IMG/VR virus record: IMGVR_UViG_3300035208_002115 | Strand: one strand, 5' to 3' | Length of the DNA: 64,000 nt | From: a virus | Lineage: Duplodnaviria; Caudoviricetes | In this document: piece after piece, positions 34,184-34,896 of the stretch | Position numbering within the stretch: the first letter of the stretch is position 1 | Layout of the letters: each line of letters starts with the position of its first letter | Position numbers and translations under genes: made by a program | Notes under the pieces: generated by a model | The model's input: only the letters and a program-made list of their open reading frames with translations | Told to the model about the DNA's origin: nothing | Database searches by the model: none

Positions 34184-34189
34184 AAAAAG

Positions 34190-34277
34190 TGGTCTCGGTG
34201 GGACTCGAACCCACAACCCTCATCTTAAAAGGATGATGCTCTCGCCTGACGGCTCGCCAATTAGGAGCTACGAAACC
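34190..34277 (-). tRNA. tRNA-Lys(TTT) with expanded D-loop
   Basis: TCATC-CT-TTT-AA-GATGA; 23-nt D-loop containing GCC-GTCA-GGC. Confidence 0.8.
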
Positions 34278-34515: not shown

Positions 34516-34532
34516 ATATTTCATATGGTCAC

Positions 34533-34617
34533 CTCGCCTGACAGGATTCGAACCTGCGACACAGGGATTTAAGCACATTTCCGATGTTCCCTTGTTCTAC
34601 CACTGAACTACAAACGA
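34533..34617 (-). tRNA. tRNA-like gene (Asn-like body) with 20-nt anticodon-loop insertion
   Basis: Canonical D/T arms; AGGGA-[ACATCGGAAATGTGCTTAAA]-TCCCT. Confidence 0.65.
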
Positions 34618-34619
34618 GT

Positions 34620-34880
34620 TTACCCATATGCCTACTCATAACCACTATTTACCCAGATACTTTCATCAACTACTAACCAATCTTACTAATAAATACTTCT
34701 CACACAGTGCCTGTCCGACCCTTCCTCGGCTCATGGTTTTTCTGAATCATCTACATTAGTAGAAATTGTATCGAAAAATGTGCGTTACACCTGCAAGTTA
34801 TACTTACTTCCAAATTAGGTTTTATCTCAGAGTTCACCGAATTTTCACGATTACTTTCAGAAAATTTTAAAACCTTCAAC
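34620..34880 (-). ncRNA. Putative ~260-nt structured RNA within the tRNA cluster
   Basis: No long ORF; TTTTCTGAA/TTCAGAAAA, TCGTGAAAAT/ATTTTTCGA, CCGA/TCGG, TATTTATTAG/CTGGGTAAATA pairings with G-U on the minus strand. Confidence 0.55.
34749..34767 (-). other. Solitary Cas12a-type direct-repeat handle AATTTCTACTAATGTAGAT
   Basis: Fits the type V-A handle AATTTCTACT-N3/4-GTAGAT; single copy, no array or cas gene in window. Confidence 0.55.
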
Positions 34881-34887
34881 CAACATG

Positions 34888-34896
34888 TCAAAGAAC
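34888..34896 (-). promoter_or_regulatory. boxA-like element GTTCTTTGA (further copies at 35246, 35351, 36080, 36186)
   Basis: Five exact copies seen, all in tRNA-cluster spacers. Confidence 0.7.

Follow-up and report, generated by a model that had tools for sequence, protein, structure and literature searches.

A lone Cas12a repeat end in a megaphage tRNA operon, probably a scar of escape from a host CRISPR array

How does the end of a Cas12a CRISPR repeat come to stand alone in the tRNA operon of a phage in which no cas12a gene is found? The question was raised by a 64,000-nt stretch, here called the window, of the phage record IMGVR_UViG_3300035208_002115 (G000; 675,678 bp, 27% G+C), for which the original prediction proposed a decoy against Cas12a transcribed together with counter-defence tRNAs. 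The capsid protein of G000 shares 62% identity with its counterpart in the 735-kb phage LR756501. Two relatives were identified by searches with the flanks of the locus and with this capsid protein: G001 (422 kb) and G002 (640 kb, complete), whose genome-wide nucleotide identity to G000 is 77–79%. The Bacteroidota-type promoter motif TAnnTTTG is about twice as common upstream of G000 genes as in coding controls. As anticipated by the prediction, the window contains no CRISPR array, and neither cas12a nor cas1 was detected anywhere in the G000 genome by a search whose positive control worked. The three CRISPR arrays of the genome all lie outside the window, and none of them has a type V-A repeat.

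The element itself is a 19-nt Cas12a crRNA handle on the minus strand (34749–34767), with a 5-bp stem and a 4-nt loop, corresponding to the 3′ end of a type V-A repeat. The 19-mer is present in a single copy both in the window and in the whole genome, and it was absent from all 100 shuffled windows. A third-order Markov model predicted 0.0003 chance occurrences per window and 0.003 per genome, a rate similar to that of a reversed-pattern control, which gave 4 matches in 401 bacterial genomes (~1.4 Gb). Comparison with known repeats, proposed at the outset as a check, revealed that the handle letters are identical to the repeat ends of at least six bacterial arrays, one of them on a contig that also encodes Cas12a (1029 bits on TIGR04330). 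The features of type V-A handles, i.e., AAUU, a 5-bp stem, a loop of 3–5 nt and a position at the 3′ repeat end, are all found at this site, and in silico folding predicted the stem in every context tried, with pair probabilities of 0.83–1.0. By these comparisons the G000 19-mer is a genuine type V-A repeat end. Its neighbors are tRNA-His on one side and a tRNA-like element on the other, and it shares the orientation of the 12 tRNAs of the window; that it is co-oriented with the tRNAs had been stated in the prediction. Being single, intergenic and viral, with no second repeat or cas gene nearby, it agrees with the definition of a solitary repeat unit. A viral mini-array has two repeats around a spacer, the second of which may be truncated; here no second or degenerate handle was found nearby at up to 2 mismatches, and only 24 of the ~36 nt of a repeat are present at the site.

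The handle is embedded in a non-coding RNA of ~260 nt (34619–34880, minus strand, ends approximate) that occupies the same place in the tRNA cluster of G000, G001 and G002. Its identity is ~95% to G001 and ~83% to G002, against 77–79% for the whole genomes, and it is therefore regarded as a conserved RNA in its own right. Rfam returned no non-tRNA family at gathering score over this RNA and nothing meaningful over the handle at E 10, which speaks against the possibility, raised with the prediction, that the hairpin is an ordinary helix of a known ncRNA family. A covariance model built from the three sequences detected no homolog in 34 records beyond G000, G001 and G002. Group I intron P4–P6, RNase P, SRP and tmRNA, considered as identities of the ~260-nt RNA, were unsupported by Rfam and ARAGORN. 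The RNA is preceded by a boxA-like motif (34888–34896, minus strand), which recurs in the tRNA cluster and overlaps a sigma-70-like match (34891–34864). Directly 3′ of it is a domain resembling a tRNA, with an anticodon loop of 20 nt (34532–34618, minus strand), which both relatives retain with compensatory changes in its stems. The ends of this domain may be clamped by a helix formed with the RNA body (34532–34880, minus strand).

The homologous loci of both relatives lack the handle. What is missing from them is a 24-nt segment (34749–34772, minus strand), consisting of GATAC and the handle. This insert ends with the exact 3′ end of the repeat, at position 1 of a native stretch of the recipient RNA (34726–34748, minus strand) that now occupies the guide position. 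In both relatives the same stretch is immediately preceded by TTTC, a Cas12a PAM of the TTTV type, as a protospacer would be; in G000 this TTTC is orphaned on the other side of the insert (34773–34776, minus strand). TTTV precedes 1.7–4.0% of positions in local and intergenic controls, and the probability of finding the handle inside a random 24-nt insert is ~3e-8. The guide matches the empty site of G001 at 22/22 positions with TTTC present, within an identity that runs for 60 nt, and the guide region of G002 differs by one extra A (within positions 8–13) and one substitution. No copy of a PAM with the first 10 nt of the guide as seed was detected in G000's own genome. The insert starts with GAT, the first three letters of the protospacer, giving a 3-nt microhomology at the left junction, and the run of T preceding the insert exceeds that of the relatives by one letter.

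Protein triads, analyzed with no outgroup rooting, placed G000 and G002 closest in 139 of 223 cases and the handle-less pair G001 and G002 in only 37, and nucleotide identities agree. For an RNA known in three genomes only, a single gain in G000 is therefore the most parsimonious history, and the handle is most simply explained as having entered an older, conserved RNA in this lineage alone. In a genome-wide scan of indels of 15–45 nt, the G000 insertion was the sole handle flagged, and a case in G002 described below was missed through alignment breaks.

The prediction had also suggested that the guide may be self-masked by an upstream sequence. A strand complementary to the first 14 guide nt does exist (34856–34874, minus strand), and the pairing is formed in one predicted fold; it is missing from other folds, and the strand is carried by both handle-less relatives as well, so that it did not evolve for the handle. 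G002 has one more T in this strand and one more A in its partner, and the mask looks like an older helix of the recipient RNA.

We consider it likely that the handle was captured from a host CRISPR array during the repair of a Cas12a cut and has been retained as an escape scar. The host array would have held a spacer derived from the PAM-flanked protospacer of the phage; Cas12a would have cut the phage DNA at this site, and the broken end would have been repaired on the host array, the right junction being joined by spacer–protospacer homology and the left one by the microhomology GAT. The repair could plausibly be the work of a phage RecA/UvsX-like protein, and G000 has a weak RecA-family match (E 5e-7). 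As far as sequence can tell, the repeat–protospacer junction in G000 is that of an array with a spacer from this site. Under its PAM rule Cas12a would no longer be able to cut the filled site, because the protospacer follows a repeat as in the host array, and the orphaned PAM is then followed by only three matching bases. Escape alone is enough to explain the fixation of the handle, and the self-contained hairpin fold predicted for the insert may be the reason for its tolerance by the recipient RNA. Neither a donor array with this spacer nor a repeat with GATAC before the handle was found in a scan of 401 genomes, from the phylum of a Cas12a-bearing Bacteroidetes genome.

There are precedents for both steps. 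UvsX of phage T4 rejoins Cas12a breaks at minihomologies of 3–4 nt (PMC8262927), and the event proposed for G000 is alike in that a Cas cut is mended through very short homology. T4 escapers were mostly deletions, whereas in G000 host repeat DNA would have been added and would have become fixed in a wild phage lineage, so that a whole crRNA unit is left behind. Recombination between a phage and a host array through spacer and target has also been reported (Varble 2019, as cited in PMC8616872), and the exchange proposed here would likewise proceed through the spacer.

A search of G002 with a looser handle pattern gave ten matches, compared with none for the reversed control. At G002 C1:156943 (minus strand), 28 nt of repeat take the place of a TTTG that, in G000 and G001, stands ahead of the same downstream bases; judged from the alignment, this is an independent, reciprocal case in which the TTTG PAM was overwritten. 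At G002 C1:283.3–282.8 kb, a gene that is whole in G000 is cut; behind the break come foreign sequence resembling a spacer, a full 36-nt repeat and the end of a different phage gene. A second full repeat, 250 nt further, abuts a gene end, and the G000 ortholog has GTTC (TTV) at the PAM position. Natural arrays contain repeats built like these full repeats. The second and third cases come from more diverged alignments (~73% and ~83% identity), and the scar pattern as a whole comprises only two cases with a clean TTTV and one with TTV. The handle of a mature crRNA measures 19–21 nt. The captured pieces of 24, 28 and at least 36 nt exceed this length, suggesting array DNA or pre-crRNA as the template.

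A four-repeat type V-A mini-array, with a compensatory C–G pair in the stem, is located at G002 C1:177605–177993 (plus strand), and the clade therefore meets Cas12a. At G002 C1:176029 (plus strand), a TAnnTTTG motif is immediately followed by a lone handle with an AT-rich, Cracr-like guide, for which no empty site is clear. It looks like a purpose-built RNA, and some lone handles of the clade may therefore not be scars. The handle-like match at G000 C1:485357 lies inside an ORF and that at G002 C1:561186 in a hairpin common to the relatives; both were set aside as unrelated. Matches in Flavobacterium phage FL-1 (29/32 nt, within a gene, E 0.03) and inside an ORF of L001 were taken as chance. 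Searches of viral and metagenome contigs with gapped and flank patterns recovered the G001 locus and otherwise only unrelated matches. Lone Cas12a handles, apparently intergenic, are also present in the viral contigs L264 (9448) and L268 (1135), with no empty homolog among the records examined, and another lies upstream of a bacterial cas12a, as for CreR-like regulators (L126:3262–3280, minus strand).

An escape scar may also have acquired a present function. If the host's Cas12a excised the handle with the next 23 nt, the resulting guide could direct cutting of co-infecting siblings that carry the empty site, a form of superinfection exclusion, and selection would then keep the scar. A hijack guide had likewise been raised in the prediction. 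This reading is compatible with the scar origin as an addition to it, and we hold it as possible, with more doubt than confidence. The handle is perfect and undecayed and is predicted to fold in context, an observation explained equally well by a recent origin, and it lies in sense within the tRNA-operon transcript; Cas12a cleaves longer repeat-bearing transcripts (PMC9943656). The perfect, PAM-bearing target in G001 and the lack of one in G000 itself agree with the rule described for viral mini-arrays, which work likewise (PMC6858448, PMC11656645): a host Cas is used, a close relative is targeted and the carrier is spared. The differences of G002 within the guide region are also listed in favor. 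G001, G002 and G003 have other arrays, several spacers of which match G000, up to 31/31, and inter-phage targeting therefore occurs in the clade; several spacers of these three genomes perfectly match their own contig, with RNA targeting, regulation or mixed strains as options. On the other side, none of the 13 spacers in G000's own arrays matched the relatives examined, the unit is known from a single genome, and its processing would split the conserved RNA in two. The guide is also partly paired in most predicted folds, and the sister scars of G002 sit in broken genes, which suggests that escape suffices. Unlike viral mini-arrays, for which the leaderless arrays of phages have been suggested to gain spacers by recombining with host arrays, the G000 unit has no second repeat and no imported spacer; its guide is the locus in place, and protection from self-targeting would come from displacement of the PAM by the repeat itself. 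A broader form of the idea, in which one repair event both immunizes the site and, within a transcribed operon, turns the DNA in place into the guide of an anti-sibling crRNA, would explain in general how viral solitary repeats originate, and the allele would spread itself in the manner of a drive. We put this forward as a tentative speculation.

The handle could instead act as an RNA anti-CRISPR (Racr) or a Cas-repressing RNA (Cracr), i.e., as a decoy in a highly expressed operon that titrates Cas12a or silences its promoter; we regard this as improbable. Lone type V-A repeats can inhibit Cas12a (RacrVA1–3, PMC10651486; CracrVA1, 10.1101/2024.10.29.618823), an abundant transcript is likely at this locus, and G002 has the promoter-adjacent lone handle. 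G000 resembles viral solitary repeat units and Racrs, including RacrVA1–3, in its phage-borne single intergenic repeat, its cognate handle fold and the absence of cas genes. It appears to differ from them in having only 24 nt of the repeat, placed inside another RNA, not conserved and flanked by its own former protospacer. With type V-A Cracrs and CreR (10.1101/2024.10.29.618823) it seems to share a single repeat followed by spacer-like sequence that host Cas12a could load. Cracrs, however, have a short match to the cas12a or toxin promoter and a terminator, whereas the G000 guide is native phage RNA with a full-length, PAM-flanked match to sibling phage DNA, and no terminator-like site was found after it (34898 to 34124, minus strand). 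Racrs frequently, though not necessarily, have acr or aca genes nearby. The neighbors at this locus are tRNAs and an HNH gene, with no HTH family among ten neighboring proteins. A decoy would also leave unexplained that the repeat ends exactly at the PAM–protospacer junction. Together with the native guide behind a TTTV PAM in the relatives and the missing terminator, the absence of the handle from both homologous loci, which the prediction itself had named as evidence against it, speaks against an evolved and conserved decoy. Decoy activity as a by-product of the scar is possible.

A faulty adaptation event is a still less probable source. Here half-site integration by the host's Cas1–Cas2 would have linked a repeat to the end of a long phage DNA, followed by microhomology rescue of the phage genome and with no prior spacer; from known adaptation chemistry, the same PAM-less repeat–protospacer junction would be expected. 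The foreign, spacer-like stretch before the full repeat at G002 C1:283051 fits an internal array unit rather than a leader end. Exact 19-mers do arise by chance in coding DNA across 600 Gb, yet a chance hairpin of the recipient RNA, or a chimeric assembly that includes a host array, is very unlikely given the ~3e-8 probability together with the PAM coincidence, the repetition of the pattern in G002 and, for a chimera, the k-mer-long overlap that short reads need at both junctions, the left one here being only 3–5 nt.

Lone type V-A repeats of phages have already been described, as have Racrs, Cracrs and kin-targeting mini-arrays (PMC10651486; 10.1101/2024.10.29.618823; PMC6858448; PMC11656645). 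Our literature search, which was not exhaustive, returned no paper with a lone repeat at a PAM–protospacer junction and its empty allele, or with a PAM replaced by a repeat, and such a paper may exist. Viral solitary repeats are usually read as evolved decoys; the filled and empty alleles described here supply a concrete and testable origin. The simple genomic signature, an empty homolog in which the cognate PAM immediately precedes the would-be spacer, could separate scars from purpose-built RNAs among lone repeats. The Cas type and one spacer of a host would be recorded in each scar, a host-range clue for uncultured megaphages. Processing of the unit, if it occurs, would lead from CRISPR escape to kin exclusion in a single step.

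Several further elements were observed in these genomes. A tRNA-Lys-like element with a much enlarged D loop (34188–34277, minus strand) was missed by ARAGORN and Rfam, and ARAGORN called a suppressor tRNA with the anticodon TTA at G000 C1:37754–37827 (minus strand). A second conserved tRNA-like RNA of ~200 nt, with a long insert between the D and T arms and behind a boxA-like motif, is found just downstream of the second handle insertion in G002 (C1:156.65–156.87 kb, minus strand), as well as in G000 (C1 ~382.0–382.2 kb) and G001 (~290.5–290.7 kb). The three arrays of G000 (C1:130402–130873, 486792–487021 and 513246–513478) are short, with different 36-nt repeats and spacers of 28–30 nt. One of them lies behind a 529-aa ORF, a candidate with an N-terminus that looks IscB-like, one beside a TnpB/Cas12f-like gene (PF07282 match) and one beside a gene for a protein of ~111 aa. 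This ~111-aa family recurs near 36-nt-repeat arrays across the clade (G000 C1:486948–487283; G001 ~163.1, 180.6, 190.6, 208.4, 404.5 and 410.6 kb; G003 ~23.5 kb), as if gene and array were mobile together.
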